Assembly (NCBI GenBank): GCA_011967385.1
Contig: GCA_011967385.1_4516.2
Reading direction: 5' to 3' (one strand)
From: a phage
DNA length: 23,062 nt
In this document: positions 502 through 12,432 of the stretch, piece after piece
Layout of the letters: every line of letters begins with the position of its first letter
Numbering within the stretch: the stretch's first letter is position 1
Position numbers and translations under genes: made by a program
Notes under the pieces: generated by a model
Databases searched by the model: none
Seen by the model: the letters and a program-made list of their open reading frames with translations, nothing else
Told to the model about the DNA's origin: nothing

Positions 502-761
502 TTAAAATATTCTCGCAGTTGGTCAAATCCACCAATGTGACTTCCGTCAGGAGCAAATACTTGAGGCATAGTCAATCCAACTTGTGATTCACGTCCAAGC
601 TTAACCAAAAGCTCAGTAATTTTCTCATCGTCGAACACACCTTTTTCCGGCATAACATTAATGAATTCGAACGGCTGTTTCTTAACAGTCAACAATCGTT
701 TCGCATTATCACAATAAATGCATTTATGAATAGTAGAGTCATACCCGTACACTTTAAACAT
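498..761 (-). CDS. nrdC: Phage thioredoxin/glutaredoxin NrdC (87 aa)
   Basis: MFKVYGYDSTIHKCIYCDNAKRLLTVKKQPFEFINVMPEKGVFDDEKITELLVKLGRESQVGLTMPQVFAPDGSHIGGFDQLREYFK is near-identical to T4 NrdC as I recall it, with a CxxC active site (CIYC). The track start at 779 is TTG; the real ATG at 761-759 is preceded by AAGGA. Confidence 0.9.
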   Translation of the reverse strand: MFKVYGYDSTIHKCIYCDNAKRLLTVKKQPFEFINVMPEKGVFDDEKITELLVKLGRESQVGLTMPQVFAPDGSHIGGFDQLREYFK

Positions 762-1167
762 TATTTTTCCTTTCGTCAATTAAGCAATTAACACCCAATA
801 CAATACATGTAATAAAACCTGTGATACAGATAGAAACCAACAACACTGTACCAAAGAACCAAATCAGGTTATCTTTACTATTTTGTTGAATATCCATCTC
901 GCGAATTTCTATAGCTATCGTATCACCTTTATTCAGAAGCGTATAAAACGATGGTGATACATGCCTGTCAAAAACTCGTCCTTGCTCATCTTTATAGACT
1001 GCAATAAATTCTAATTTAGAATATTTTCCTGTAGATTGGCCTGAGATTAATTCCACTACCTCCACAGGAATTACTTTAGTTTCCATATAAGTATTCTGGC
1101 TGTTCCAAATGAATGGAATAATGGCAAAAACTAAAGCTGCAATAAAACAACGAAGACTATATCTCAT
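754..1167 (-). CDS. Predicted membrane protein (N- and C-terminal hydrophobic segments), nrdC.1 position
   Basis: ATG at 1167-1165 in a TAATG overlap with the upstream stop. Hydrophobic N-terminus (FIAALVFAIIPFIW) and C-terminal TM (LIWFFGTVLLVSICITGFITCIVLG). Confidence 0.65.
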   Translation of the reverse strand: MRYSLRCFIAALVFAIIPFIWNSQNTYMETKVIPVEVVELISGQSTGKYSKLEFIAVYKDEQGRVFDRHVSPSFYTLLNKGDTIAIEIREMDIQQNSKDNLIWFFGTVLLVSICITGFITCIVLGVNCLIDERKNNV

Positions 1168-1472
1168 TATAATGTTCTCTCAAATTTGTGGAAGCATTTA
1201 CGGCATTTCAATTTCAGGTTATCAGTGGTCCAGTTAACCAATTGAACCTGAATAGTTCCACATTCCGGACACGGATGTTTTGCTGCCGATTTGGCAGCAT
1301 TTTCACGTCGTTCAACCATTTTCATTATTTCGTTCCATGCCGGAGGAACGAACTCTTCTTTACCATGAATTTTATCTCGCTGAACAAATTCAATCTTTGA
1401 ACTATCGTCAATAAACTTAACTAAGCTGTGATTAGTGTTCATATCAATATCCTCTAAAAGACGTAGTTTCAT
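1167..1472 (-). CDS. Zinc-ribbon protein (CPEC...CRKC), function unknown
   Basis: TAATG overlap at both ends. C-terminal four-Cys ribbon: HPCPECGTIQVQLVNWTTDNLKLKCRKCFHKF. Confidence 0.65.
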   Translation of the reverse strand: MKLRLLEDIDMNTNHSLVKFIDDSSKIEFVQRDKIHGKEEFVPPAWNEIMKMVERRENAAKSAAKHPCPECGTIQVQLVNWTTDNLKLKCRKCFHKFERTL

Positions 1473-2422
1473 TATAACACCTCAATGGCATTTCGTAAAC
1501 CATCCGCTTTCGCATTCAGAGCTTTTAACGATTTAGTTTGTTCTTTAATCTGGGCTTCGACTTCTTTCAGACGAGATTTGAGATATTCGCGTTCTTCTCT
1601 TAAGTTATCAACTTTTTCTGCTTTAGGCTCTTTAATAGGCTTAGGTTTATATGTATTAGGGTTCTTCAACTTAATTTGAATGCGAGAACTGAATAACATC
1701 GAACCGTTATCTTCGGTTTCACTGTGCATTTCTACCACGTCCATGATTCTTAACATCATGCGAAGTTTATAAGACAGCGAACGAACGGTTTTATTGTGCT
1801 TCTTAATTTCTTCAGCTTTCATGGTACCGAGATTACGTGAGTAGTAATAAGGAACCTGGATATCAATTGACAATGATGCGTTACCATTACCAGTTGGTTT
1901 GAATACTGCAGTAACCCAATCTTTAACATGAACTTTATTTGTACGATCATCGCCGCCTGTGAATAATTTACATGAATGTTTAAAAAGCATATTCACTTGG
2001 TTATTGAATTCACAAGCAAATTTATCAGCAAATTTAGTTTCAGGAATGGTAGAGAACCAATCAGCCAAATGAGTCTTTTTAACATCGTTAATAATAGTAA
2101 ATTCAACCAAATCAGTTTTAGATGTCACAGATTTAATAAAGCTCGGCTTCATAAAGTTTTTAATGTTATCGCGAGCTACAGTAGAAGATAATAAACGAGA
2201 ACGTTTGAACCATTGAAGCAGTGTCCCTAATGAATGAGAATACGCATTCTGAGTATCTTTACAGATATGGTTTTCTTGGCCTGTGTATGTACCAAAATCG
2301 CGAAGAATACCACTTACTACATCTCGGTGTGGAACATCAAATCCTAGTGCACCAACGGCGCGCTGGGCATGAACGTTAGCGATAAGACCGGCAAAGTATT
2401 CAATGTAATGTGAACGTGTCAT
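1472..2422 (-). CDS. Hypothetical protein, 316 aa, with C-terminal Lys/Glu-rich coiled-coil tail
   Basis: ATG at 2422, SD GAGAGG, own promoter at 2451-2480. The C-terminus (KPKPIKEPKAEKVDNLREEREYLKSRLKEVEAQIKEQTKSLKALNAKADGLRNAIEVL) looks coiled-coil. Confidence 0.7.
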   Translation of the reverse strand: MTRSHYIEYFAGLIANVHAQRAVGALGFDVPHRDVVSGILRDFGTYTGQENHICKDTQNAYSHSLGTLLQWFKRSRLLSSTVARDNIKNFMKPSFIKSVTSKTDLVEFTIINDVKKTHLADWFSTIPETKFADKFACEFNNQVNMLFKHSCKLFTGGDDRTNKVHVKDWVTAVFKPTGNGNASLSIDIQVPYYYSRNLGTMKAEEIKKHNKTVRSLSYKLRMMLRIMDVVEMHSETEDNGSMLFSSRIQIKLKNPNTYKPKPIKEPKAEKVDNLREEREYLKSRLKEVEAQIKEQTKSLKALNAKADGLRNAIEVL

Positions 2423-2450
2423 AATATTTTCCTCTCGTTAAGATAGATTC

Positions 2451-2480
2451 ATTATACTCCAACCATCCTTGGTTGTAAAC
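2451..2480 (-). promoter_or_regulatory. Sigma70-type early promoter (GTTTAC-N18-TATAAT)
   Basis: Minus strand: -35 GTTTAC (2480-2475), -10 TATAAT (2456-2451), upstream of the ATG at 2422. Confidence 0.55.
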
Positions 2481-2484
2481 TGAT

Positions 2485-3441
2485 TTATGATTTTAATGCA
2501 TTCATTGCGTTAAAAAGTTTAGAGTACTGCAACTGGAGATTGGTCACCACCTGTTGAGCATCACGAAGCTTAGCTTGTGCCTTGTCAAGTTCAACGGATA
2601 GTTGGTCTACAGTAGCCTTGATTTGATTGTAATGATAATCTTCAGCCGGAAGAAGGTCATTAGAAACATTTAGTTTTACTGCCGACAGTTTGCACACATT
2701 TGGCAAACCTTTAAACATACCAGATTGTGCTGGAGAATATGCGTCTAGAACCTCTGCATTACCGACTGGTGTTGCTGTAATATTACCTTCAAACAATGCA
2801 TTTTCCTTTTTAAGATTTTGATAGTATTCAGAGTCTTTGTGCCACCATGGTGCAGGAACCTTTTTACCAATAGATACACGAGCCTGGATAGCGATATGGC
2901 CCTTATTCTTGATAGGGTTGATAATATTAAGCTCACGAGAATAAATTGCTTTAATCTGGTGGATATTATCACCTAACACTTCCAACGCTTGGTGGAATAC
3001 ACGAGCAACGTTATCATTCTTAGGTTTATACGTAAGAGTGAACTCATTCTCACTGATAACCATGATTTCTAACTTATCGTGAGTATATTTCAAATGTTTC
3101 ATGTTAATTGCTTGAGGACGAATACGAGAAGCAATGGCCATCAGATTGTTAAGGTTATTCCGGAACTGCTTAGCGAAATATTGTCCTTCACCACCAATAC
3201 AAAAATTACGAAGTTTCTGTTTGGCCAGTAAACGACTGAACTCACCGTTTTTAATGAACTCTTTAACGGGAGTGTTAGTAACACATTCAAATTGAGTAAA
3301 CTTACGAGAAGTAATCCCATAATACGAACAGATTTCCTCAATCTCTTCAGGAGTCTTTACAGGCATACGGATAGGATTAGGTCCTGGAGTATATGCGTTC
3401 GAGGTAAATTCTTTGATAAGTTCTCTACGTGTAATAGCCAT
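2485..3441 (-). CDS. Hypothetical protein, 318 aa, with C-terminal coiled-coil
   Basis: ATG at 3441. The promoter/leader 3467-3497 duplicates the one upstream of the previous gene. C-terminus is Q/L-rich helical (LDKAQAKLRDAQQVVTNLQLQYSKLFNAMNALKS). Confidence 0.7.
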   Translation of the reverse strand: MAITRRELIKEFTSNAYTPGPNPIRMPVKTPEEIEEICSYYGITSRKFTQFECVTNTPVKEFIKNGEFSRLLAKQKLRNFCIGGEGQYFAKQFRNNLNNLMAIASRIRPQAINMKHLKYTHDKLEIMVISENEFTLTYKPKNDNVARVFHQALEVLGDNIHQIKAIYSRELNIINPIKNKGHIAIQARVSIGKKVPAPWWHKDSEYYQNLKKENALFEGNITATPVGNAEVLDAYSPAQSGMFKGLPNVCKLSAVKLNVSNDLLPAEDYHYNQIKATVDQLSVELDKAQAKLRDAQQVVTNLQLQYSKLFNAMNALKS

Positions 3442-3467
3442 TTTATATTCCTCATGTTGAAAAATTT

Positions 3468-3497
3468 ATTATACTCCAACCATCCTTGGTTGTACAT
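3468..3497 (-). promoter_or_regulatory. Early promoter-like element with degenerate -35 (ATGTAC-N18-TATAAT)
   Basis: About 27 nt (TTATACTCCAACCATCCTTGGTTGTA) identical to the 2451-2480 promoter/leader. Confidence 0.4.
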
Positions 3498-4492
3498 CAT
3501 TCCTTAAGAAGTTTTACTACCTGAATAAGATTAGCTCGTTCTGTTTTATTTTTACCGTTCAATCCGGCCAATCGCGAGATTTCATCGTCAGTTTGTTGAA
3601 TAGTTACATTAAGTTCATTAATCAAAGCTTCAAAGTATTTGATTTGCTCAGCATGTTTTGATTCAAATTTCTGAACCGGAATAACGTCTTGGTTCAGTTC
3701 ATCAATAAGGTCTTTAAGAGCATCTTCTTGGTTGATATCATATTCAACTTCTTTTATTTCTTCAACGAGCTCGTCTTTATATCTAACGTCTTTTAGTCCT
3801 GGTGCTGGTCCTGAAATCTCTTCTTTAAGAGTACAAACATATCCAATACGGTATCCAATGCCGTCTCGCTTGATATCAACTTCGTCGATAAATCCGCAAT
3901 GTTTAAGTCCAGAGCCGATTATGTCAAAATATCCTTGACGTCGTCCTTCAAACGTTACACGAACTACTAAGACAGTTTTGCCACCAACCTTTTGAAGCTC
4001 GCATTTATAAAAGTCTGTTGAACCTGAATAACGTGGATGAGTTTTAAAGTTCATCTGACGATCTAGGCCCATTTGTAAACGTGCTGTTACGGCCATAAAA
4101 CGTGTTTGGTTCTCGTTAAGATGAGCAACAATCCATTTCAAAGGCATTTTACACTGTTCACGACCGAACAAGTCAGTACGTCCTAGATTACGCAGGATGT
4201 TGTTAGAGTTAATCATCGACAGAACGTTAAGTTTATTCAGCGCGCTGAAGATTCCATCAGCCATTGATTTTCCATAACCTTTACACGCTTTAATAAGTGC
4301 TCGCGGCAGATTAGTATAGATTTCAGACGGCATATGAAAATCAAATTTACTAGTCAGTAATTGATGAACTTGGATAGCAATTTGCTCATAATTAAGTGCT
4401 CTGCGATCGTTATGGTCTTTAAACCACACTTTAATCTGTGAAGCACATAAACCGTTAATTTCATGTTTTACCGCATCAGATGTAATGCTCAT
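3497..4492 (-). CDS. Hypothetical protein, 331 aa, with C-terminal acidic coiled-coil
   Basis: ATG at 4492, SD GAGGAAA. Third of three consecutive ~320 aa proteins that share a coiled-coil tail. Confidence 0.7.
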   Translation of the reverse strand: MSITSDAVKHEINGLCASQIKVWFKDHNDRRALNYEQIAIQVHQLLTSKFDFHMPSEIYTNLPRALIKACKGYGKSMADGIFSALNKLNVLSMINSNNILRNLGRTDLFGREQCKMPLKWIVAHLNENQTRFMAVTARLQMGLDRQMNFKTHPRYSGSTDFYKCELQKVGGKTVLVVRVTFEGRRQGYFDIIGSGLKHCGFIDEVDIKRDGIGYRIGYVCTLKEEISGPAPGLKDVRYKDELVEEIKEVEYDINQEDALKDLIDELNQDVIPVQKFESKHAEQIKYFEALINELNVTIQQTDDEISRLAGLNGKNKTERANLIQVVKLLKE

Positions 4493-4527
4493 AACTATTT
4501 CCTCAGATTGAATTGGAACTCAAAACC

Positions 4528-4552
4528 ATTATAACCCGTCCTTGGGTAAAGC
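4528..4552 (-). promoter_or_regulatory. Possible MotA-dependent middle promoter (aCGCTTTA box, 13 nt, TATAAT)
   Basis: Minus strand aaaCGCTTTAcccaaggacgggtTATAATgg. No -35 hexamer at sigma70 spacing, but a MotA-box-like GCTTTA sits about 13 nt upstream of -10. Confidence 0.35.
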
Positions 4553-4554
4553 GT

Positions 4555-5082
4555 TTATGCGTGAACCGTCTTTAAACGTTCTTCAAATTTCCGAAGAGTA
4601 CTAATACGTTCTGCTTTCTGTTTTGTGTAGTTTGCAATACGTTCTGAAGTGAGAGCGTATCGTTCGTTTACTGTTTCTTTCATGAAGTCAGGGATTTCAC
4701 GAGAAGCTTTAATTTCATCAAACTTATCGAGTACTGCCTGGTCTTCAGCAATTAAATTTTCGTACATCTCGATATCTTTCTTGATGAAGTCGATATCTTC
4801 CTGGGTTACTTTGGATAAACGAGATGCTTTATCCTTTTTGTACTGCTCGTTAGTTTCACGAGACCAGAATAATGTACGTTTTTTGTTAGTGTTTTTGTAG
4901 ACTTCCACAATTCCAACTGAATCGATGATAACAATCCAATTCCAGCGAGATTTGAAAATCTGACCTCCGTCCACGGTAATCTCGTTACCATAAGCAACGT
5001 CATTAAAGAACTTGCTTTGTGCTTCAGATTTAAATTTACCGTCGTTATAATTTACCAGGTTGAAAATATCTTTAGCGTTCAT
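4555..5082 (-). CDS. Hypothetical protein, 175 aa
   Basis: ATG at 5082 preceded by GGAGG; early promoter at 5110-5138. Confidence 0.65.
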   Translation of the reverse strand: MNAKDIFNLVNYNDGKFKSEAQSKFFNDVAYGNEITVDGGQIFKSRWNWIVIIDSVGIVEVYKNTNKKRTLFWSRETNEQYKKDKASRLSKVTQEDIDFIKKDIEMYENLIAEDQAVLDKFDEIKASREIPDFMKETVNERYALTSERIANYTKQKAERISTLRKFEERLKTVHA

Positions 5083-5109
5083 GTTTTACCTCCAGTAGTT
5101 GATAGGTCT

Positions 5110-5138
5110 ATAATAACATAACCATAGACCTTGTAAAC
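5110..5138 (-). promoter_or_regulatory. Sigma70-type early promoter (GTTTAC-N17-TATTAT)
   Basis: Upstream of the ATG at 5082. The spacer contains an 8-bp perfect inverted repeat AGGTCTAT/ATAGACCT (5104-5131). Confidence 0.5.
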
Positions 5139-5140
5139 AA

Positions 5141-5416
5141 CTAAAAGAAACTTTTTTCGGTATTTTTTCCACTGAACCAAACAGACTTCGGGATTTTTTG
5201 TAATTTTTCAGATTTAAGTTTCTCTTCCTGTTCTTTCTTATACGCATCCTTGTCGTACTGGAGCATCTCTATGGCATTCTTTTGCAAATGATCTAAGGTA
5301 ATTAAGGCTTTAGTTTTTCCTTTCAAGGAAGAGTCCTGGCGAACCTCCTCGCTATATTGTTCTGTTGCACTAATCATACGATGGGCATATAATTCACGAC
5401 TGGCTTGGATATTCAT
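5141..5416 (-). CDS. Hypothetical protein, 91 aa
   Basis: ATG at 5416 with SD GAGGA inside the 3' end of the upstream ATPase gene. Confidence 0.55.
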   Translation of the reverse strand: MNIQASRELYAHRMISATEQYSEEVRQDSSLKGKTKALITLDHLQKNAIEMLQYDKDAYKKEQEEKLKSEKLQKIPKSVWFSGKNTEKSFF

Positions 5417-5423
5417 AATTTCC

Positions 5424-6404
5424 TCATTTCAGTAAAGTTACTTCGGAGATTTCCTCCCAACCATCTTTATCAGTTGAAATAAAATCTGCTACATAAAGAG
5501 CCGTACGTAATGATACATTGCGAAGACGAGATATGTTAGCCTTCATCCAGGACAATGCTTTGTACGTTTCTGCATCCGTCAGGCCACGTTTCTGCATCAT
5601 GTCAGTAGATAATATTACATCTTCAACTCGGACCATAATCTCTTCATTAGAGTGTACTCCAAGGTCCAAATACACTGAACGAGATACTAAAGCTTGAAGG
5701 TGTGGAGCAAGTTTCGAACCGCGTTCTAACTCTTTATCGATATCAACGTTTGTAATGAAAACGATAGTACCTTCAAACTCAAATTCTTTATCGATACCCT
5801 TATCATCAAGATAAGATGATGCAGTGCTCCAGCAAACTTTGCGTTTATCGCCAGTATCTAATGCGGCTTTAAGAAGGTTCAAGATGTCCATATCTGAGAA
5901 TACATCAACGTCATCGATTAAGAGAACGCTGTCTGCATCACGGTTGAGCCAAAGTTGTTCGTAAAGGCCAATACCAGAGATTTTGCCATTAATGCTTTTG
6001 TATTTGATGAAACCATTATCATTAGCATTATTAAGCGCTTTATCCAGAGAATACGTCTTACCAATACCTGCTGCACCTGAAATAATGAGTGAACGAATTT
6101 TGCCATCGATAATGCCATTCGTCATCATGTTCATTACTTTAAAGCGTTTGTTGATACGAGTTTTCATATCTTCAGCGTTTTCAACAACTGCAACTGGTGA
6201 TGTCTCAACTCCTTCCATTACGATGTCTGATTTGAAGACCCATACTCCACGTTCAGAACCATCAATCATAACGAAAATTTTACCGTCACCTAAGTGGGAA
6301 CATTCAGGATTAAGCTTTGCCGGGAACCATGTCTTTGTGGCAACATAAGAACCAGAGATTTCGTTATTACGATAGATACCTTTTTTGATTTGAACGTTGA
6401 ACAT
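5424..6404 (-). CDS. P-loop NTPase, AAA+-like, with a ~110 aa N-terminal extra domain
   Basis: Walker A LIISGAAGIGKTYS, Walker B VLLIDDVD, sensor-1-like IVFITN. The track start at 6416 is TTG; the ATG at 6404 has SD GGAG. Early promoter at 6444-6472. Confidence 0.75.
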   Translation of the reverse strand: MFNVQIKKGIYRNNEISGSYVATKTWFPAKLNPECSHLGDGKIFVMIDGSERGVWVFKSDIVMEGVETSPVAVVENAEDMKTRINKRFKVMNMMTNGIIDGKIRSLIISGAAGIGKTYSLDKALNNANDNGFIKYKSINGKISGIGLYEQLWLNRDADSVLLIDDVDVFSDMDILNLLKAALDTGDKRKVCWSTASSYLDDKGIDKEFEFEGTIVFITNVDIDKELERGSKLAPHLQALVSRSVYLDLGVHSNEEIMVRVEDVILSTDMMQKRGLTDAETYKALSWMKANISRLRNVSLRTALYVADFISTDKDGWEEISEVTLLK

Positions 6405-6443
6405 TTTATTCTCCAAATTTACTCATTTCGTTTCGATAGGTCT

Positions 6444-6472
6444 ATAATAACATGTTTAAAGCAAAAGTAAAC
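6444..6472 (-). promoter_or_regulatory. Sigma70-type early promoter (GTTTAC-N17-TATTAT)
   Basis: Upstream of the ATPase gene start at 6404. Confidence 0.5.
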
Positions 6473-6474
6473 AA

Positions 6475-6693
6475 TTATTTGCGACGAGATTTTTTGGTAA
6501 GAGGTTGAAAGAACATTGCTTTACCAGCAGGAGTCAAAGTGACTCGTAATGCGTTACCGATTCCTAAGGATGCTTTAACTAGACCTTTAGCTTTCAGTTC
6601 ACCGAATGCTTGACGTTGGTCTGCATCACGAGTGTTAACCATAAGACCTTTATCACCAGCTTCACGAATCATTTCTAACATTTTGGTTTTCAT
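6475..6693 (-). CDS. Small basic protein (72 aa), possible winged-helix DNA/RNA binder
   Basis: The track start at 6750 is GTG and lies in the promoter -35; the ATG at 6693 has a strong SD AGAGGAGAA. MKTKMLEMIREAGDKGLMVNTRDADQRQAFGELKAKGLVKASLGIGNALRVTLTPAGKAMFFQPLTKKSRRK. Confidence 0.55.
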   Translation of the reverse strand: MKTKMLEMIREAGDKGLMVNTRDADQRQAFGELKAKGLVKASLGIGNALRVTLTPAGKAMFFQPLTKKSRRK

Positions 6694-6721
6694 TTTGTTC
6701 TCCTCTTGTTTTGATAGGTCT

Positions 6722-6750
6722 ATAATAACATATCCTAAAAGCATGTACAC
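6722..6750 (-). promoter_or_regulatory. Early promoter-like element (GTGTAC-N17-TATTAT)
   Basis: Upstream of the ATG at 6693. Confidence 0.4.
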
Positions 6751-6777
6751 TACTTTTTAAAAATATTTTGACCCCCT

Positions 6778-6797
6778 AAAGGGCCCGAAGGCCCTTA
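6778..6797. terminator. Stable GC hairpin (C(UUCG)G tetraloop in the minus-strand RNA) right after the NTase stop: terminator or RNA-stability element
   Basis: AAGGGCC-cgaa-GGCCCTT on the plus strand. The minus RNA forms a GGGCC stem with a UUCG loop, followed by UUUAGGGGG rather than a clean U-run. Confidence 0.45.
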
Positions 6798-7787
6798 TCA
6801 TTTATAGTATGAATTGTGGTTTTCTAAGTAGACTTGCTCAAGGAAGTCATCCCAGAAACTCATATCTACTTTTTGCTGCATACCATTCTTAGCGGCTTGT
6901 TCTGCGGCATGTTCAACTTGGTCGACGATATCTTCTAGGAATTCCTGTACGGTTTTAAACGTATGTTTACCAAGCTTAACATCGAGAATAAATGGAGCAT
7001 CCTGAAGCGGGTAAACCAGGTCGCCGGTTTTGTAAATTTCTAAGAGCTGAAGTCCACCACGGCATGCGTGACTCAATGCTTTCCAATCAATACCTTCATT
7101 GGCTTCTGCCTTACGAGCACGTTCACCATAGTTCTCTTCCAGTTTAACCAGGATGGCATTGAACTCTTTGTTAGTTAACGTATCTTGGAATTTACGGTCT
7201 AACAGACTATAGAATGTTTGCTTACCTGTTTTCTCGTTTTCAGTTTCAACCCATGAAGCAAATTCACCTACAGGCAGAACATTCTTCATATGTGATAAAC
7301 GAATTACTGCACCGTTATCAAAGTATTGTCCCCATTCATTAGAACGTTTAAGGGCTTGGCGAAGAACAGCCAGACGAGAACCCTTGACGCCATATTTAGA
7401 AGCTTGCTTACGGACATACCCTAAATAAGATTTCATGTTAGTGGTATAGAAACGAGACCTGTTGTCTTGAATATACTTCCATACATCAGGCAAATCAGAT
7501 TTAACTACTAGACCTGGTGGAGTGTGAAGCATATCTAATGCGACAGTTTCACCATCTGCAGCTAGTTTAAAGAAATATTTGAGACTATACAACTCATGGT
7601 CCACGTCGTCTTTTGTGTTCTTAGAAGATGTGTTATTCGTGTTCTTGCTCATGTGTTCTTTAACGTTACCGGTCAAAATATCACGAGCATGAGGGACATA
7701 AATTTCTTTAAAATCGACGTCAGATTCAGGAGTAGACGTTCCATAAAGGTGGCTACCAAAGTAGCCTTTCATAATTGTTTTCATCAT
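6798..7787 (-). CDS. Pol-beta-superfamily nucleotidyltransferase-like protein (GS...DVD motif) with helical C-terminal domain
   Basis: N-terminal GSHLYGTSTPESDVDF fits the NTase signature hG[GS]-x9-13-Dh[DE]h, with a possible third acidic residue in VALDMLH. ATG at 7787 overlaps the upstream stop (ATGA). Followed by a hairpin at 6778-6797. Confidence 0.75.
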   Translation of the reverse strand: MMKTIMKGYFGSHLYGTSTPESDVDFKEIYVPHARDILTGNVKEHMSKNTNNTSSKNTKDDVDHELYSLKYFFKLAADGETVALDMLHTPPGLVVKSDLPDVWKYIQDNRSRFYTTNMKSYLGYVRKQASKYGVKGSRLAVLRQALKRSNEWGQYFDNGAVIRLSHMKNVLPVGEFASWVETENEKTGKQTFYSLLDRKFQDTLTNKEFNAILVKLEENYGERARKAEANEGIDWKALSHACRGGLQLLEIYKTGDLVYPLQDAPFILDVKLGKHTFKTVQEFLEDIVDQVEHAAEQAAKNGMQQKVDMSFWDDFLEQVYLENHNSYYK

Positions 7788-8257
7788 TTAGCCTTATATT
7801 CAAGAGTAGGACAGACTTTTTCTTTACGAGCTTTAAGGTATTCACCTATTAATGATTTCTTACGTTCAATAGGCTCAAGTCCATTTTTAATTCGTTCTTG
7901 GTTTTGTGCAATGAGCTCAATTTCTTTATAATATTTTCTGTCGTTATATTTGTCTAACAACCAAGACGGACCAATTATCAACCCAACAGAAATAAGAGCC
8001 ATGACTGCTACCATTAAAATGCCTACACCAATTGAGGCCGGAACTAATGTCCATAGACTGCTAAAAACAAAGAATTTAGTTAAAATTTCCTGACCAATGA
8101 TTATGACTGCTGCTAAAATCGCAAATCCAATAATCGAAACAGCCAATACCGGGAGAAATGTTTTCCAAAAATAAGCACACAACGTTTTCGGGCGATTCCA
8201 TGTACTATTGAATGCGGCATAAATTTTATAGTGCCAAGAGTTTTCATTGATAATCAT
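7784..8257 (-). CDS. Integral membrane protein (2-3 TM) with basic C-terminal tail
   Basis: TM segments LPVLAVSIIGFAILAAVIIIG and VGILMVAVMALISVGLIIG. ATG at 8257, SD AAGGA. Translationally coupled to the NTase gene. Confidence 0.65.
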   Translation of the reverse strand: MIINENSWHYKIYAAFNSTWNRPKTLCAYFWKTFLPVLAVSIIGFAILAAVIIIGQEILTKFFVFSSLWTLVPASIGVGILMVAVMALISVGLIIGPSWLLDKYNDRKYYKEIELIAQNQERIKNGLEPIERKKSLIGEYLKARKEKVCPTLEYKAK

Positions 8258-8266
8258 AATAATTCC

Positions 8267-8797
8267 TTATTTCAAAGTCGGGATAATAGAATCAAGATAA
8301 GCTTTAAGAGCAACTGCTTCATCTTTGTCTAATGTAACGATATGTTGACGAAGGTCATCAATTTGGCGAATAACTACGACATCGCCGTCTTCATAAGAAG
8401 GATTAACGCTCAGGACCGTTGTAGAGTCAGGGTTGACCAGATTTGTAATAAAAGCATTACGGCATTTAGACCATTGAAGCTTGGCCTTTTTGACTGGTTC
8501 AGATTCCATGAATTCTTTCACCTTAGTGACGAATGTTTTCCAATTATTAATAGAAAAACATTCGTCTTCAGTTTCGATATTAACCCCACTATAAAGTCCG
8601 TGATAAAAACGAACTTGAAGGTCTTCGTCAATGTTAATTACAGATGCATGGCCCGGTGGATTGAGTTTCAAAATCTTGTCCAGTTCCATAGGAAGAATAG
8701 TAACAGCATCATCTTCTTGTGTCAGAACGTAAGCATAACCACGTTTTTCGATACATAAATCGCCAAACAACTCGGTTGTTTCAATTACAGTTTTCAT
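8267..8797 (-). CDS. Hypothetical protein, 176 aa
   Basis: The track start at 8809 is TTG; the ATG at 8797 has SD GGTGA. First large gene of the operon ending with the NTase. Confidence 0.6.
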   Translation of the reverse strand: MKTVIETTELFGDLCIEKRGYAYVLTQEDDAVTILPMELDKILKLNPPGHASVINIDEDLQVRFYHGLYSGVNIETEDECFSINNWKTFVTKVKEFMESEPVKKAKLQWSKCRNAFITNLVNPDSTTVLSVNPSYEDGDVVVIRQIDDLRQHIVTLDKDEAVALKAYLDSIIPTLK

Positions 8798-8914
8798 ATT
8801 ATTCACCAATTAAAGTTTCAACAAAATTCACAAAATCATTCTGACAAGCATCAACCTGATTTCTATAAAATTAAATAAGGTCCATCAATTTATTAGCTTG
8901 TTCACGGGTCATTT

Positions 8915-9019
8915 TACCATACTCGCTTCAATAAGATTCATTACACCATTTACCATGTTATACGTAAACATCGGATAATTGTATTGTACTACAACATAAG
9001 CGATAAGCAAAAGTTTCAT
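8915..9019 (-). CDS. Possible small hydrophobic peptide (34 aa)
   Basis: Not in the ORF track (too short). ATG at 9019 preceded by GGAGAA, just downstream of promoter 9048-9077. MKLLLIAYVVVQYNYPMFTYNMVNGVMNLIEASMVK. Confidence 0.3.
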
Positions 9020-9047
9020 TTTGTTCTCCGTTTGTTTTGGTAGGACT

Positions 9048-9077
9048 ACTATAACATAGTCCTACCAAGGTGTAAAC
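9048..9077 (-). promoter_or_regulatory. Sigma70-type early promoter (GTTTAC-N18-TATAGT) with palindrome
   Basis: A 10-bp perfect inverted repeat GGTAGGACTA/TAGTCCTACC (9039-9066) is centred on the -10 hexamer. Confidence 0.5.
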
Positions 9078-9286
9078 TACCGATTGTGTTTTAAATGTTG
9101 ATAAAGTTCTTCAACTTGTTTAGGGTCCAAAACAATTAGGTCATTTTCTTGACGAAGATAAATCCATCCCTTATCCCCAGGGCCATTTTTACAAAACATC
9201 ACCGTCGTCATATCATCATCTTCAGCGCTTTCAGGTAAAAGTTCAAGTACGCCGTCTTCAGATTTTCCAGTATAATCGTAAAGCAT
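9077..9286 (-). CDS. Small acidic hypothetical protein (69 aa from the ATG at 9286)
   Basis: The ATG at 9313 has no SD and overlaps the upstream gene; the ATG at 9286 has SD GAGGA and sits 7 nt after the upstream stop. Confidence 0.5.
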   Translation of the reverse strand: MLYDYTGKSEDGVLELLPESAEDDDMTTVMFCKNGPGDKGWIYLRQENDLIVLDPKQVEELYQHLKHNR

Positions 9287-9293
9287 AATGTCC

Positions 9294-9473
9294 TCACATA
9301 ATCTCGTTAACATACATTTGCAATTCAGTGTGCGTATCAGCCATCTTTTTCATTGCCTTATTGATATCGATATCACCGTCTTCACACCCATGGGCATTTT
9401 CCCAATCAGATATAGCATTAGCATACTCTTCAATCAAAAACATTAACTTAGAAATTTTTTCTTTACGTGACAT
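9294..9473 (-). CDS. Small hypothetical protein (59 aa)
   Basis: The track start at 9512 is TTG; the ATG at 9473 has SD AGAGGAGAA; promoter at 9501-9529. Confidence 0.5.
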   Translation of the reverse strand: MSRKEKISKLMFLIEEYANAISDWENAHGCEDGDIDINKAMKKMADTHTELQMYVNEIM

Positions 9474-9500
9474 AACGTTCTCCTCTAGTAAGTAAGGTCT

Positions 9501-9529
9501 ACTATAACACAACCTGAGGAGAAGTAAAC
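9501..9529 (-). promoter_or_regulatory. Sigma70-type early promoter (GTTTAC-N17-TATAGT)
   Basis: Upstream of the ATG at 9473. The -35 is followed by TTCTCCTC, as at 13777-13805 and 17613-17641. Confidence 0.5.
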
Positions 9530-9540
9530 TGATAGATACA

Positions 9541-9570
9541 AAAAAGCCCCAACCTTTCGGAAGGGGCTTT
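9541..9570 (-). terminator. Intrinsic terminator (minus strand), hairpin plus U-tract
   Basis: Minus RNA AAAGCCCC-UUCCGAAAGGUU-GGGGCUUUUUUGU, immediately 3' of the gene ending at 9573. The inner loop can form CC-GAAA-GG. Confidence 0.7.
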
Positions 9571-9572
9571 GA

Positions 9573-10130
9573 TTAGTTTTTGTAATATCGTAAAGGGTTG
9601 ATATGGAATGAAAGCATTGCGCGTGGAATAGGACGACTCAAAAGACTCTTAAGTTTCCAACCACAGTAAACGCGCAGATAAAATGTAATACCGCCTACCT
9701 TAAGATAAGGTATAGCAGCGAATAATCCCCACGCAGACTCATTCCAAACTAAAAGGTATCCATGATGTGCTGGGTCAGGAGAACCAGATTTAGTTTCGGT
9801 GTTGCCTTTATAATGCCATTCTGATGAAGCTTCACGCCCTAAAACATGATACGAAAAATTATATGCTTTGTTTCGCCATAGCCAAGCTACGCGTTGAGCA
9901 TATTTACCTACAACAGGAATTTTACGTATTTTAGACCAACGTTCAACATGACCACGGTCTCCATCGATAGGATTATCGTAAGTCATCATCCAGTCAAAGC
10001 CATAAGGTAGTTTACCGGTTTTTTCGCTATGGAATGGAACTACAAATGGTGCTAGAATAATTGCCAAAATCGCTGCGATCCAATCTATAGGAACAAGAAC
10101 AACCCAACTTACATATTTTAAAAATTTCAT
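9573..10130 (-). CDS. Membrane-anchored hypothetical protein, 185 aa (rI.-1 position)
   Basis: N-terminal TM (VSWVVLVPIDWIAAILAIILAPFVV). ATG at 10130, SD AGAGAGGA, preceded by an exact late motif TATAAATA. Confidence 0.65.
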   Translation of the reverse strand: MKFLKYVSWVVLVPIDWIAAILAIILAPFVVPFHSEKTGKLPYGFDWMMTYDNPIDGDRGHVERWSKIRKIPVVGKYAQRVAWLWRNKAYNFSYHVLGREASSEWHYKGNTETKSGSPDPAHHGYLLVWNESAWGLFAAIPYLKVGGITFYLRVYCGWKLKSLLSRPIPRAMLSFHINPLRYYKN

Positions 10131-10154
10131 ATATCCTCTCTTAGTTTACAAGGA

Positions 10155-10162
10155 TATTTATA
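10155..10162 (-). promoter_or_regulatory. T4-type late promoter motif TATAAATA
   Basis: Exact TATAAATA on the minus strand, about 25 nt upstream of the ATG at 10130. Confidence 0.55.
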
Positions 10163-11938: not shown

Positions 11939-12432
11939 AATAATGGTTCCCAATCAACAATCACAATTTCTAGTTTAGTGGAATATGTATCAAGAATTTC
12001 TTCGATAACGCCCCAGTTTCCACCACCGATACCTGCACCAATTCTTGGCATATAAATTACAGGCTTTGTTATCTTATTCTTTCCGAATTCATTTAATTCT
12101 ATTATACAATTCATTAAAGCAGAGTACTCAAAATTAGGTCCCGGCTCAAACTGTGTATAAAGATTAAAGCAATAAGCTTTATGGGTCTTAAAATATTTTT
12201 CATAAACTGAATAAGATCCGAGTTTAGACTCATCTCCATATACAGTTTGAAGTTTATCAGCTTCCAGAATTTTTGGATACGCCTTTGCTAATTGTCCTGC
12301 TACACCTGCGCCCATTGTATGAAAACAATTACACCCATGAGCAATATTGTTACCTTTAGAAAACAGGGCGACAATATCGCCCTTGATATAGTTTTTAATC
12401 ACTTGCTGCAAGTCCTCTAGTATAAGAGTCAA
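11935..12432 (-). CDS. Macro-domain (ADP-ribose binding/processing) protein (tk.4 position)
   Basis: KGDIVALFSKGNNIAHGCNCFHTMGAGVAGQLAKAYP and a later IGAGIGGG resemble macro-domain glycine-rich motifs. There is no ATG before residue 40, so the start is non-ATG: either TTG at 12432 (SD GGTGGA 8 nt upstream) or GTG at 12402. Confidence 0.65.
   Translation of the reverse strand: MTLILEDLQQVIKNYIKGDIVALFSKGNNIAHGCNCFHTMGAGVAGQLAKAYPKILEADKLQTVYGDESKLGSYSVYEKYFKTHKAYCFNLYTQFEPGPNFEYSALMNCIIELNEFGKNKITKPVIYMPRIGAGIGGGNWGVIEEILDTYSTKLEIVIVDWEPLL

Follow-up and report, generated by a model that had tools for sequence, protein, structure and literature searches.

An early cassette of an RB69-like T-even phage encodes an NrdC.11/RlaP-family nucleotidyltransferase translationally coupled to a small membrane protein

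The stretch of phage DNA analysed here (the window, 23,062 nt) is 97.2% identical to phage RB69 across the region, and the RB69 annotation holds the same genes as the cassette described below. The phage is an RB69-like T-even phage, and the cassette consists of early genes in the plastic nrdC-tk region. The order on the minus strand, to which all features below belong, is a promoter-like site, a 36-aa ORF, a MobD.1 homolog, a 157-aa membrane protein and a 329-aa nucleotidyltransferase (NTase). This block had been interpreted in the first-pass annotation as one transcription unit that includes a 176-aa protein and a 157-aa membrane protein and ends in a GC hairpin with a UUCG loop. The genes do read that way, and each of these elements was recovered. 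No RNA families were returned by an Rfam search of positions 6300-9700, and PADLOC and NCBIfam gave no usable match for any gene of the block.

The upstream boundary is a predicted composite early-promoter/stem-loop element of the PeSL type at 9037-9076, located by promoter scan, RNA folding and conservation in RB69. A -35 box (TTTACA, 9076-9071) and a -10 box (TATAGT, 9053-9048) with a TG extension are separated by a 17-nt spacer, and the match TTTACA-17-TATAGT scored 10/12 in the promoter scan. An early promoter had been claimed here, and a site was indeed found at 9076-9048 that is intergenic and conserved in RB69. A total of 11 promoter-like sites were observed in the region versus 10.6 expected from shuffles, so that the consensus match alone proves nothing. 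The spacer and -10 box are overlaid by a 13-bp perfect stem-loop (9037-9068), overlooked previously, for which a folding energy of -21.8 kcal/mol was calculated (z = -4.06), a value matched by 0 of 200 shuffles.

The 36-aa hydrophobic small ORF (8909-9019), taken from the ORF list, is preceded by a GGAG Shine-Dalgarno sequence and matches phrog_3515 with an E value of 1.3e-19, covering 34 of 35 profile positions. A hydrophobic peptide had been correctly recognised at this place, though its length is 36 aa and not 34 aa. Its stop codon is overlapped by the ATG of a tk.1 remnant (8871-8912), which was detected by alignment with RB69 and had been missed earlier. The remnant lies between the 36-aa ORF and MobD.1 and comprises 13 codons followed by TAA; relative to the RB69 tk.1 (59 aa), it corresponds to a 66-bp in-frame deletion plus the TAA. 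The MobD.1 homolog (8267-8797, 176 aa from its ATG) was assigned from Pfam and the RB69 annotation. Its matches to T4_y05I_N (2.9e-41) and T4_y05I_C (1.7e-18) mark it as a putative y05I-like transcription factor. Among the 134 proteins scanned from the three gene positions preceding membrane-family genes, T4_y05I_C was the commonest family, with 12.

The next gene (7784-8257) encodes the 157-aa small membrane protein (RB69ORF104c, phrog_944), characterised through phrog_944, an AF2 model and conservation. It is a full-length member of phrog_944 (9e-54), which is labelled "membrane protein" (RB69ORF104c / RB32ORF096c) with no function in the PHROG label, and no Pfam, NCBIfam or PADLOC match was obtained for it. 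The family recovered by profile search comprises 5,088 representatives at 50% identity. Near-invariant motifs were observed across 143 representatives at the N terminus (SWHY and LCxYFW) and the C terminus (KAxKxKxCP), with two long hydrophobic helices between them. The AF2 model (pLDDT 81.6) places helices at residues 26-69 and 74-124 and its sole strands at 2-4 and 153-155, and the protein is probably a hairpin of two helices in the inner membrane whose conserved ends both face the cytoplasm. A Foldseek search of this model against the PDB gave nothing below an E value of 5 and did not return HalA. When bacterial genome contigs were searched, the family was found in only two prophage regions of Cellvibrionaceae MAGs, both without RNA-repair genes; it therefore looks phage-borne rather than part of a bacterial Rtc operon. 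No earlier account of the motifs or of the RNA-repair neighbourhood discussed below was found in the literature searched, which did not extend to the key 2016 comparative paper or the original Hailong paper.

The stop codon of the membrane gene (TGA, 7786-7784) overlaps the start codon of the NTase gene (ATG, 7787-7785) as ATGA, as had been noted together with the translational coupling that it implies. In many databases the NTase begins at the next codon (328 aa), in which case stop and start still share one base. T6 and 11 related loci preserve the overlap, at -4 or -1 nt, and with translational coupling in this lineage both proteins would be made together.

The NTase (6798-7787, 329 aa) was assigned from Pfam, phrog_388, identity to its T4 and T6 counterparts and an AF2 model. 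The comparison with T4 nrdC.11 that the first-pass annotation had proposed gave 78% identity over the full length to both T4 and T6 NrdC.11, and as judged from its sequence the gene is the ortholog of T4 nrdC.11 (tk.-11; NP_049709). Pfam PF10127 (RlaP) was matched at 48.2 bits (E = 1.4e-12; gathering cut-off, 23 bits) over residues 7-152, and phrog_388 ("nucleotidyltransferase") at 3.1e-126; PF10127 was likewise assigned to almost all of the NTase homologs listed. The Pfam alignment reaches across the NTase part at the N terminus only (positions 23-148 of a 249-position profile), so that the substrate-binding domain at the C terminus may be unlike its counterpart in bacterial RlaP. The catalytic motif GSHLYGTSTPESDVDF spans residues 11-26, and in an alignment of 123 sequences G11, S12, D23 and D25 were invariant, residue 85 was D or E in 123 of 123, and D61 and D63 were conserved in more than 95%. 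All parts of the Pol-beta signature, namely hG[GS], [DE]x[DE] and an additional acidic position, are thus present. The position of the GS motif only 11 residues from the N terminus is the norm throughout the NrdC.11 clade.

[quoted passage not shown] A conserved basic cluster (K135, R138, R223, K236, H240, R243 and K271) was identified in the helical domain. The best matches in a comparison of structures were NTase folds, including HalB, 3c18 and KNTase, and the closest solved fold among the matches listed was HalB. Together with the RlaP match and the invariant catalytic residues, these data bear out the initial reading of the protein as a Pol-beta-type NTase with a helical C-terminal domain. 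PDB sequence searches with the NTase, its N-terminal half or the 123-sequence profile returned noise only. HalB reportedly has a conserved C-terminal priming tyrosine; an equivalent in the present NTase was looked for and not supported, as Y327 and Y328 show no conservation (more than 60% of sequences have gaps there). A further tyrosine, Y320, is 65% conserved and lies inside a helix.

Immediately 3' of the NTase stop codon is a C(UUCG)G tetraloop hairpin (6779-6796; AAGGGCC-UUCG-GGCCCUU), recognised from the sequence, a terminator scan and folding. Its U tail is only 3 nt long, and in its 41-nt context it folds with -13.4 kcal/mol; with a z score of -1.37 relative to shuffles, the hairpin was judged real though unexceptional. 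Its predicted function is likely that of a 3'-end stabiliser or attenuator. Directly after it follows a second, paralogous promoter/SD/ATGAAA module of about 70 nt (6688-6760), absent from the first-pass annotation, which was revealed by a repeat search, an alignment of the two copies and blastn. This module carries a promoter-like TGTACA-16-TATTAT (6749-6722, promoter scan), heads the homolog of RB69ORF102c and delimits the cassette downstream. A 26-nt core, CAAAACAANNGGAGAACAAAATGAAA, is present in exactly two copies in the window (0 expected), and the same cross-match between the two copies was obtained by blastn in RB69. Two copies of a composite, PeSL-type promoter/stem-loop module thus bound the cassette. 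The PeSL class has been described for T4-type phages, with an early-promoter consensus for T4/PST of TTTACW-N17-TAYWAT and stem-loops between or over the boxes (PMC2839356, PMC4122927). By its consensus, its stable stem-loop, its intergenic position, its repetition and the accessory ORFs that it flanks, the element at 9037-9076 appears to belong to this class.

What the NTase may do is suggested by its family. Bacterial RlaP extends an RNA 3'-OH by 1-2 NMPs and is inactive on DNA and protein, an activity shown for the Pseudomonas enzymes PfRlaP and PaRlaP; it favours damaged-tRNA mimics, uses dATP efficiently and restores aminoacylation to a tRNA lacking one anticodon-loop nucleotide (PMC12776372). 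T4 NrdC.11 has already been placed in the RlaP family, in network cluster 5, by Carruthers et al. in a 2025 preprint (PMC12776372). By homology with the Pseudomonas enzymes, the phage NTase would most likely extend broken RNA at its 3'-OH by one or two NMPs. The substrate would be tRNA halves after the removal of a nucleotide by a host anticodon nuclease of the RloC type, and the phage polynucleotide kinase-phosphatase and RNA ligase would then reseal a functional tRNA, with an outcome of counter-defence rather than signalling. The data themselves show gene structure, family membership, catalytic residues, fold, distribution and synteny; the RNA substrate, the part played in tRNA repair and a connection with the membrane protein, whether physical or functional, are inferred. 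Taken as a whole, an RNA-repair cassette built on the NTase, with the coupled membrane protein as an accessory, is considered the best explanation of the locus, and we hold it to be probable.

The genomic context of the NTase was assessed in 27 NTase clusters. On a single strand of one IMG/VR contig (L151), an Rnl1-type RNA ligase, a membrane-family gene, ThyX, a metallophosphoesterase, an AAA_33 kinase and RlaP are found together; this RlaP is 46% identical to the present NTase, and its gene overlaps that of the AAA_33 kinase. It was the only one of the 27 clusters in which an RNA ligase or a kinase lay less than 5 kb away, the other 26 including the window itself. In T-even phages the NTase does not adjoin rnlA or pseT, and the "ligase-associated" context that defines such genes is therefore mostly absent. 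Both pseT and rnlA are encoded elsewhere in T-even genomes. T4 mutants lacking nrdC.11-mobD.3 are viable (PMC9825161). The scarcity of ligase neighbours, this viability, the Pfam match confined to the NTase half and a closest solved fold, HalB, that makes oligo-dA all weigh against the RNA-repair reading; contig L151 speaks for it.

The pairing of membrane gene and NTase is not obligate. A membrane gene was present upstream of the NTase within 5 kb in 8 of the 27 clusters and absent from 19, and T4 possesses nrdC.11 without it. Where the pair co-occurs, the two are often separated by a variable set of small genes, from one to several (gaps of 310-2574 nt), and the NTases that lack a membrane-family gene mostly have no other TM protein upstream either. 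The membrane family also has other partners. An RNA-repair-type gene was present at the locus in 24 of 46 diverse membrane-family clusters, and the adjoining gene varied with the lineage: RlaP (overlapping), a PF09414 ligase (-3, +90 and +377 nt), an Rnl1-type ligase (+12 nt), a PNK-HAD phosphatase (+10 nt) or a phosphoesterase (0 nt). Immediate adjacency on the same strand (0-90 nt or overlapping) was counted about 9 times in the 46 clusters, versus a rough expectation of 1-2, and spans five RNA-repair enzyme types in separate lineages, including the non-T4-like Pakpunavirus. Much of the adjacency to RlaP may be inherited synteny within Straboviridae. Two candidate neighbours were rejected: gp170-172 of ICP1, which resemble nucleotide-metabolism rather than RNA-repair proteins, and a 343-aa neighbour at another locus, L043 (PHROG label "DNA polymerase"), proposed as a divergent RlaP and given an hhalign probability of 0.1. 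From this neighbourhood, the membrane protein could serve phage modules for RNA repair or nucleotide metabolism as an accessory that the NTase itself does not require. The stronger proposal, that it is a dedicated component of phage RNA repair which anchors, organises or regulates the adjacent RlaP, Rnl1/Rnl2-type ligase or Pnk, is regarded as rather unlikely.

An alternative account of the pair is that the two proteins are functionally unrelated, the membrane protein being an independent early accessory that shares a hyperplastic region and a transcript with the NTase and acts, for example, in superinfection exclusion, lysis timing or envelope modification, as do its neighbours rI and Spackle. 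We give this nearly an even chance. It accords with T4, with the 19 clusters that have no membrane gene nearby and with the wide gaps seen elsewhere. It is also consistent with the other settings of the family, which include nin-like regions of lambdoid prophages, positions beside TerC, TelA and TerD, and in ICP1 a place beside dNMP kinase and pyrophosphohydrolase genes. The surrounding region moreover abounds in genes for membrane or periplasmic proteins of the antiholin and Spackle types, and PeSL-mediated shuffling brings unconnected ORFs together (PMC2839356). The excess of immediate adjacencies to five types of RNA-repair enzyme argues against it, however, as does contig L151, in which genes for a ligase, a phosphoesterase, a kinase and RlaP are packed together with the membrane gene.

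A different substrate for the NTase was also considered. The enzyme might follow the pattern of the KNTase/ANT enzymes, which have a HEPN-like helical domain, and modify a small molecule, a protein or the 3' end of phage or host RNA (tailing). This would fit a C-terminal domain that lies outside the RlaP profile and the lack of a ligase near the NTase in most phages. The family-level sequence match is nevertheless to RlaP and not to the ANT families, RlaP labelled neither protein nor DNA (PMC12776372), and contig L151 sets the clade in an RNA-repair gene group, so that this reading was deemed improbable.

Still less probable, and in our view very much so, is a Hailong-like or anti-Hailong system, in which the NTase would make an oligonucleotide (e.g., oligo-dA) that gates the membrane protein, as a phage-borne exclusion system, or keeps the host HalA channel closed, as a counter-defence decoy. 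A membrane gene followed by an NTase is the order of halA-halB (PMC13434031), and the efficient use of dATP by bacterial RlaP (PMC12776372) would suit such a product. The NTase, however, has only 15% identity to HalB, which neither phmmer nor a profile search recovered, and the model of the membrane protein matches neither HalA nor any other PDB chain. The C-terminal tyrosines and the pairing of the two genes are likewise not conserved, and PADLOC was silent, although PADLOC-DB 2.0.0 (2023) may omit Hailong. Finally, the initial analogy to a CD-NTase with a TM effector, an MNT toxin-antitoxin or an OAS-like module, in which the NTase would produce a second messenger or AMPylate a partner and the membrane protein would serve as effector or toxin, draws its sole support from an NTase fold translationally coupled to a small membrane protein and can be dismissed almost entirely, since the Pfam assignment is RlaP, no PADLOC model matches either protein, the MntA model scores 12.9 bits (cut-off, 60), CD-NTase, cGAS and OAS structures are absent among the matches listed for the NTase model, and the early GS motif typifies the whole clade.

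The NTase side of the cassette is largely ordinary and already known, the gene being a near-identical copy of a catalogued T-even gene. What is new is the membrane family with its motifs, its varied RNA-repair neighbours and the PeSL-type boundaries of the cassette. If the proposed RNA-repair role is correct, NrdC.11 supplies T-even phages with the missing nucleotide-restoring step of classic Pnkp/Rnl1 tRNA repair, which bears on the old question, now directly testable, of how phages survive nucleotide-excising nucleases such as RloC. A dedicated membrane component, if such it is, might gather tRNA repair at the inner membrane or detect ribotoxins delivered through the envelope. In either case a very large phage family that has no Pfam model but a sharply conserved cytoplasmic motif gains a testable functional neighbourhood, and the cassette illustrates the packaging of accessory genes by repeated promoter/stem-loop modules.

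Among known systems, kanamycin nucleotidyltransferase/ANT(4') and other enzymes that join an NTase to a HEPN-like domain give no sequence family match and act on small molecules. HalB (PDB 9dbh) is about 217 aa long, shares no sequence-level similarity with the NTase and makes oligo-dA rather than repairing RNA. The HalA channel has a cytoplasmic crown domain, whereas the present membrane protein is 157 aa with two helices, and Hailong is a host defence system while the gene described here belongs to a phage. The boundaries resemble PeSL cassettes in their predicted sigma70-like early promoter near the T4/PST consensus, the stable stem-loop over spacer and -10, the SD and start codon after the promoter, the repetition of the module and its position flanking accessory ORFs in a hyperplastic region. 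They differ in that the -10 box TATAGT carries one mismatch to the consensus, the stem of the downstream copy is degenerate, and a separate UUCG hairpin precedes that copy.

With bacterial RlaP the NTase shares the Pfam family, the catalytic GS and DxD motifs and the third acidic residue, and the secondary structure of its AF2 model is compatible with the PfRlaP crystal structure as reported, in which an NTase domain is followed by a helical domain whose terminal helix packs back. It is distinguished by its place in network cluster 5 rather than cluster 1a, by the beta insert of the phage clade at 177-201, by a profile alignment confined to the N-terminal half and by a gene outside any RtcB/RtcA operon. 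As in T4, the NTase gene lies between nrdC.10 and the mobD.1 block. In T4, however, the HNH homing endonuclease gene mobD stands upstream of nrdC.11 in the place of the membrane gene, whereas RB69, T2, T6 and the present phage have retained the membrane gene with the stop/start overlap. RB69, T2 and T6, with the membrane gene, and T4, without it, thus offer a natural comparison.

The window, a contig, belongs to an RB69-like T-even phage (Mosigvirus); positions 6600-9300 share 97.2% identity with RB69 55132-57895 and 98.5% with Shigella phage ESh27. Every gene of the cassette lies on the minus strand. These are a hydrophobic ORF (8909-9019, phrog_3515) of 36 aa rather than the 34 aa given in the first-pass annotation, MobD.1 (8267-8797, 176 aa, Pfam T4_y05I_N and T4_y05I_C), the membrane protein (7784-8257, 157 aa, RB69ORF104c, phrog_944) and the NTase (6798-7787, 329 aa, annotated in RB69 as nrdC.11, nucleotidyltransferase). 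The ATGA overlap between the membrane-gene stop and the NTase start is real, and the hairpin with a UUCG loop (AAGGGCC-UUCG-GGCCCUU, 6779-6796, minus strand) is present directly 3' of the NTase stop. The gene layout described previously was thus confirmed, with three additions: a stem-loop over the promoter, a repeated module and a remnant of tk.1. The remnant (8871-8912, minus strand, 13 codons), located between the 36-aa ORF and MobD.1, differs from the 59-aa tk.1 of RB69, annotated as "helicase loader," by a 66-bp in-frame deletion with TAA at the junction. The deletion is probably shared by phages AV109 and AV114, each of which matched the whole query in one aligned piece.

Two neighboring features were also recorded. 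Relative to RB69, 594 bp are inserted between mobD.2a and rI (9569-10162). The insertion contains a 185-aa ORF of unknown function with a hydrophobic N terminus (9573-10130, phrog_2143), and about 29 bp of RB69 sequence matches both flanks of the insertion, as expected of cassette insertion via recombination between repeats. The gene following the cassette and the RB69ORF102c homolog encodes a 330-aa NrdC.10 homolog (5424-6416, minus strand, phrog_1250), which gave weak P-loop matches to AAA_22, AAA_16 and nSTAND3, all below cut-off, and which accompanies NrdC.11 in several T4-like genera.

The comparison with T4 nrdC.11 suggested in the first-pass annotation identified the NTase as its ortholog, with 78% full-length identity to NrdC.11 of T4 and T6 and a genomic position identical to that of the T4 gene. 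The NTase matched phrog_388 (3.1e-126) and cleared the 23-bit cut-off of Pfam PF10127 (RlaP, "RNA repair pathway DNA polymerase beta family") with a score of 48.2 bits; the Pfam match was confined to the NTase half. Residues 11-26 read GSHLYGTSTPESDVDF. In an alignment of 123 sequences (25-99% identity), G11, S12, D23 and D25 were invariant, position 85 was D or E without exception, D61 and D63 were conserved in >95%, and the helical half contained a conserved basic cluster. The AlphaFold model (pLDDT 90.7) shows an NTase domain at the N terminus and a helical domain at the C terminus, along with a long helix and a small three-stranded insert at 177-201. The top PDB fold matches were all NTases, while HEPN domains matched the helical half. 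The earlier assignment to the Pol-beta type was therefore right, as supported by the Pfam match, the invariant catalytic residues and the fold. The GS motif does lie close to the N terminus, as had been observed; what had seemed atypical is the norm across the whole NrdC.11 clade. Many GenBank records label NrdC.11 orthologs "thioredoxin," a widespread misannotation presumably arising from name transfer from nrdC.

The NTase gene had already been catalogued in T-even phages, and it belongs to a known family for which an RNA-repair hypothesis has been published. Two Pseudomonas RlaP enzymes were characterized in a December 2025 preprint (PMC12776372). They extended RNA 3'-OH ends by one or two NMPs (or dAMP) in a Mn2+-dependent manner, preferred a cleaved-tRNA mimic and were inactive on DNA and protein; a repaired tRNA that had lost one anticodon-loop nucleotide regained aminoacylation. 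The authors proposed RlaP as an antidote to nucleotide-excising nucleases such as RloC and explicitly assigned T4 NrdC.11 to the family as an uncharacterized member of cluster 5 (PMC12776372). The same prediction for phage RlaPs was made in a comparative study of jumbo phages (PMC7824862). From the family biochemistry and the RloC proposal, the most likely role of the NTase would be counter-defense, in which it would restore the nucleotide(s) at broken RNA 3' ends before a phage ligase seals them. There are three caveats: the Pfam match is confined to the NTase half, no ligase or kinase was found within 5 kb in 26 of 27 NTase clusters, and T4 mutants without nrdC.11-mobD.3 are viable under laboratory conditions (PMC9825161). 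A repair context for the clade is indicated by metagenomic locus IMGVR_UViG_3300022221_000194 (640-5960), where a compact same-strand block contains an Rnl1-type RNA ligase, a membrane-family gene, ThyX, a metallophosphoesterase, an AAA_33 (PNK-like) kinase and an RlaP NTase (46% identity) that overlaps the kinase gene; a dNMP kinase comes after the block. The block resembles a complete RNA-repair cassette of phage origin.

The NTase and the membrane gene are not an obligate two-component module. A same-strand membrane gene lies upstream in 44 of 79 NTase loci, but at 70% identity these loci fall into only 8 of the 27 clusters, and the two genes overlap directly (-4 or -1 nt) in the enterobacterial T-even group alone; elsewhere, one to several small genes intervene. 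Furthermore, T4 47.0-61.5 kb contains no membrane-protein homolog. Whereas the window phage, RB69 and T6 retain the pair, T4 has the free-standing HNH homing endonuclease gene mobD (NC_000866 56429-57208) in the exact membrane-gene slot, overlapping the nrdC.11 start by 17 nt. Three Acinetobacter-type T4-like contigs carry two membrane-family copies within 2-3 kb of one another, near the NTase.

Searches of the membrane protein against Pfam, NCBIfam and PADLOC gave no match. Homologs were found by tblastn in 1,207 phage records, and an exhaustive profile search gave 5,088 representatives (50% identity) at E up to 0.001. Over 143 representatives the middle was variable and the ends near-invariant, with N-terminal motifs S7-W8-H9-Y10 and L26-C27-x-Y29-F30-W31 and C-terminal motif A143-x-K145-x-K147-x-C149-P150. 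The AlphaFold model (pLDDT 81.6) has long helices at 26-69 and 74-124 and beta strands only at the termini (2-4 and 153-155), which suggests a helical hairpin whose conserved terminal segments may form one small cytoplasmic unit; a simple hydropathy count allows three segments instead.

Among 46 membrane-gene clusters (60% identity), an RNA-repair-type gene was present in 24 loci and a downstream same-strand RlaP in 17. The directly abutting gene varies by lineage: a PF09414 RNA ligase (-3, +90 and +377 nt) in Aeromonas Tulanevirus-like phages and an unrelated metagenomic phage, an Rnl1-type ligase and then a kinase (+12 nt) in Pseudomonas Pakpunavirus, a PNK-type HAD phosphatase (+10 nt), or a phosphoesterase (0 nt) in Vibrio phage D69. 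About 9 such immediate adjacencies were seen against 1-2 by chance, a rough estimate that assumes ~5 RNA-repair-type genes among ~250 per genome and is uncorrected for shared ancestry and early-gene clustering. Upstream, the MobD.1 C-terminal domain (T4_y05I_C) was the commonest family within three genes (12 of 134 proteins scanned), and one locus encoded a protein with a cREC_REC "cyclic-phosphate processing receiver" domain, a domain linked to RNA-repair systems. A functional partnership with RNA repair is a real lead, though unproven and rather doubtful, because the family also occurs in other contexts. The leading alternative, that the membrane protein functions independently of RNA repair, draws on the same occurrences: beside dNMP-kinase-like and pyrophosphohydrolase genes in ICP1, beside TerC, TelA and TerD, and in lambdoid prophage nin-like regions (DnaB, NinB, NinG) of two Cellvibrionaceae MAGs, the only bacterial-genome matches, where no RNA-repair genes were found nearby. 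The family is therefore also present in temperate phages.

Far less probable is a pair resembling Hailong, a host defense whose membrane channel, HalA, is held shut by oligo-dA made by the NTase HalB (PMC13434031). HalB is the best structural neighbor of the NTase and the gene order matches, which keeps this very unlikely reading alive; however, identity is 15% with no signal in PDB sequence searches, the C-terminal tyrosines of the NTase and the gene pairing are not conserved, and a PDB structure search with the membrane-protein model found nothing similar, HalA included. The minimal signalling or abortive module of the first-pass annotation, for which the DncV/CdnE, MNT and OAS folds had been named, is unsupported, as PADLOC gave no match to the NTase, the MntA model scored far under cut-off, and no CD-NTase, cGAS or OAS was among the PDB fold matches listed.

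The residual interest lies in the uncharacterized membrane family with its recurrent RNA-repair neighborhood and in the cassette architecture, which is clearly bounded by promoter-early stem-loop (PeSL) modules. A promoter-like site (TTTACA-17-TATAGT, 9076-9048, minus strand) was found where a promoter had been placed at 9048-9077, and over it lies a perfect 13-bp stem-loop (9037-9068, minus strand; -21.8 kcal/mol, z -4.06, equalled by 0 of 200 shuffles). Promoter-like matches in the region showed no excess (11 versus 10.6 in shuffled sequence). A paralogous module of ~70 nt, comprising promoter, Shine-Dalgarno and ATGAAA (6688-6760, minus strand), lies immediately downstream of the NTase hairpin and bounds the other end; its 26-nt core has exactly two occurrences in the window, against zero expected. 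A third, weaker copy was indicated by a blastn match of 9478-9530 to the RB69 locus (12181-12232). PeSLs are composite promoter/terminator cassettes found on either side of accessory ORFs where T4-type genomes are hyperplastic; they have the T4/PST consensus TTTACW-N17-TAYWAT and stem-loops that cover the promoter boxes or lie between them (PMC2839356, PMC4122927). The elements at 9037-9068 and 6688-6760 match this published type, and from that match the block reads as one putative early transcription unit between repeated regulatory modules.
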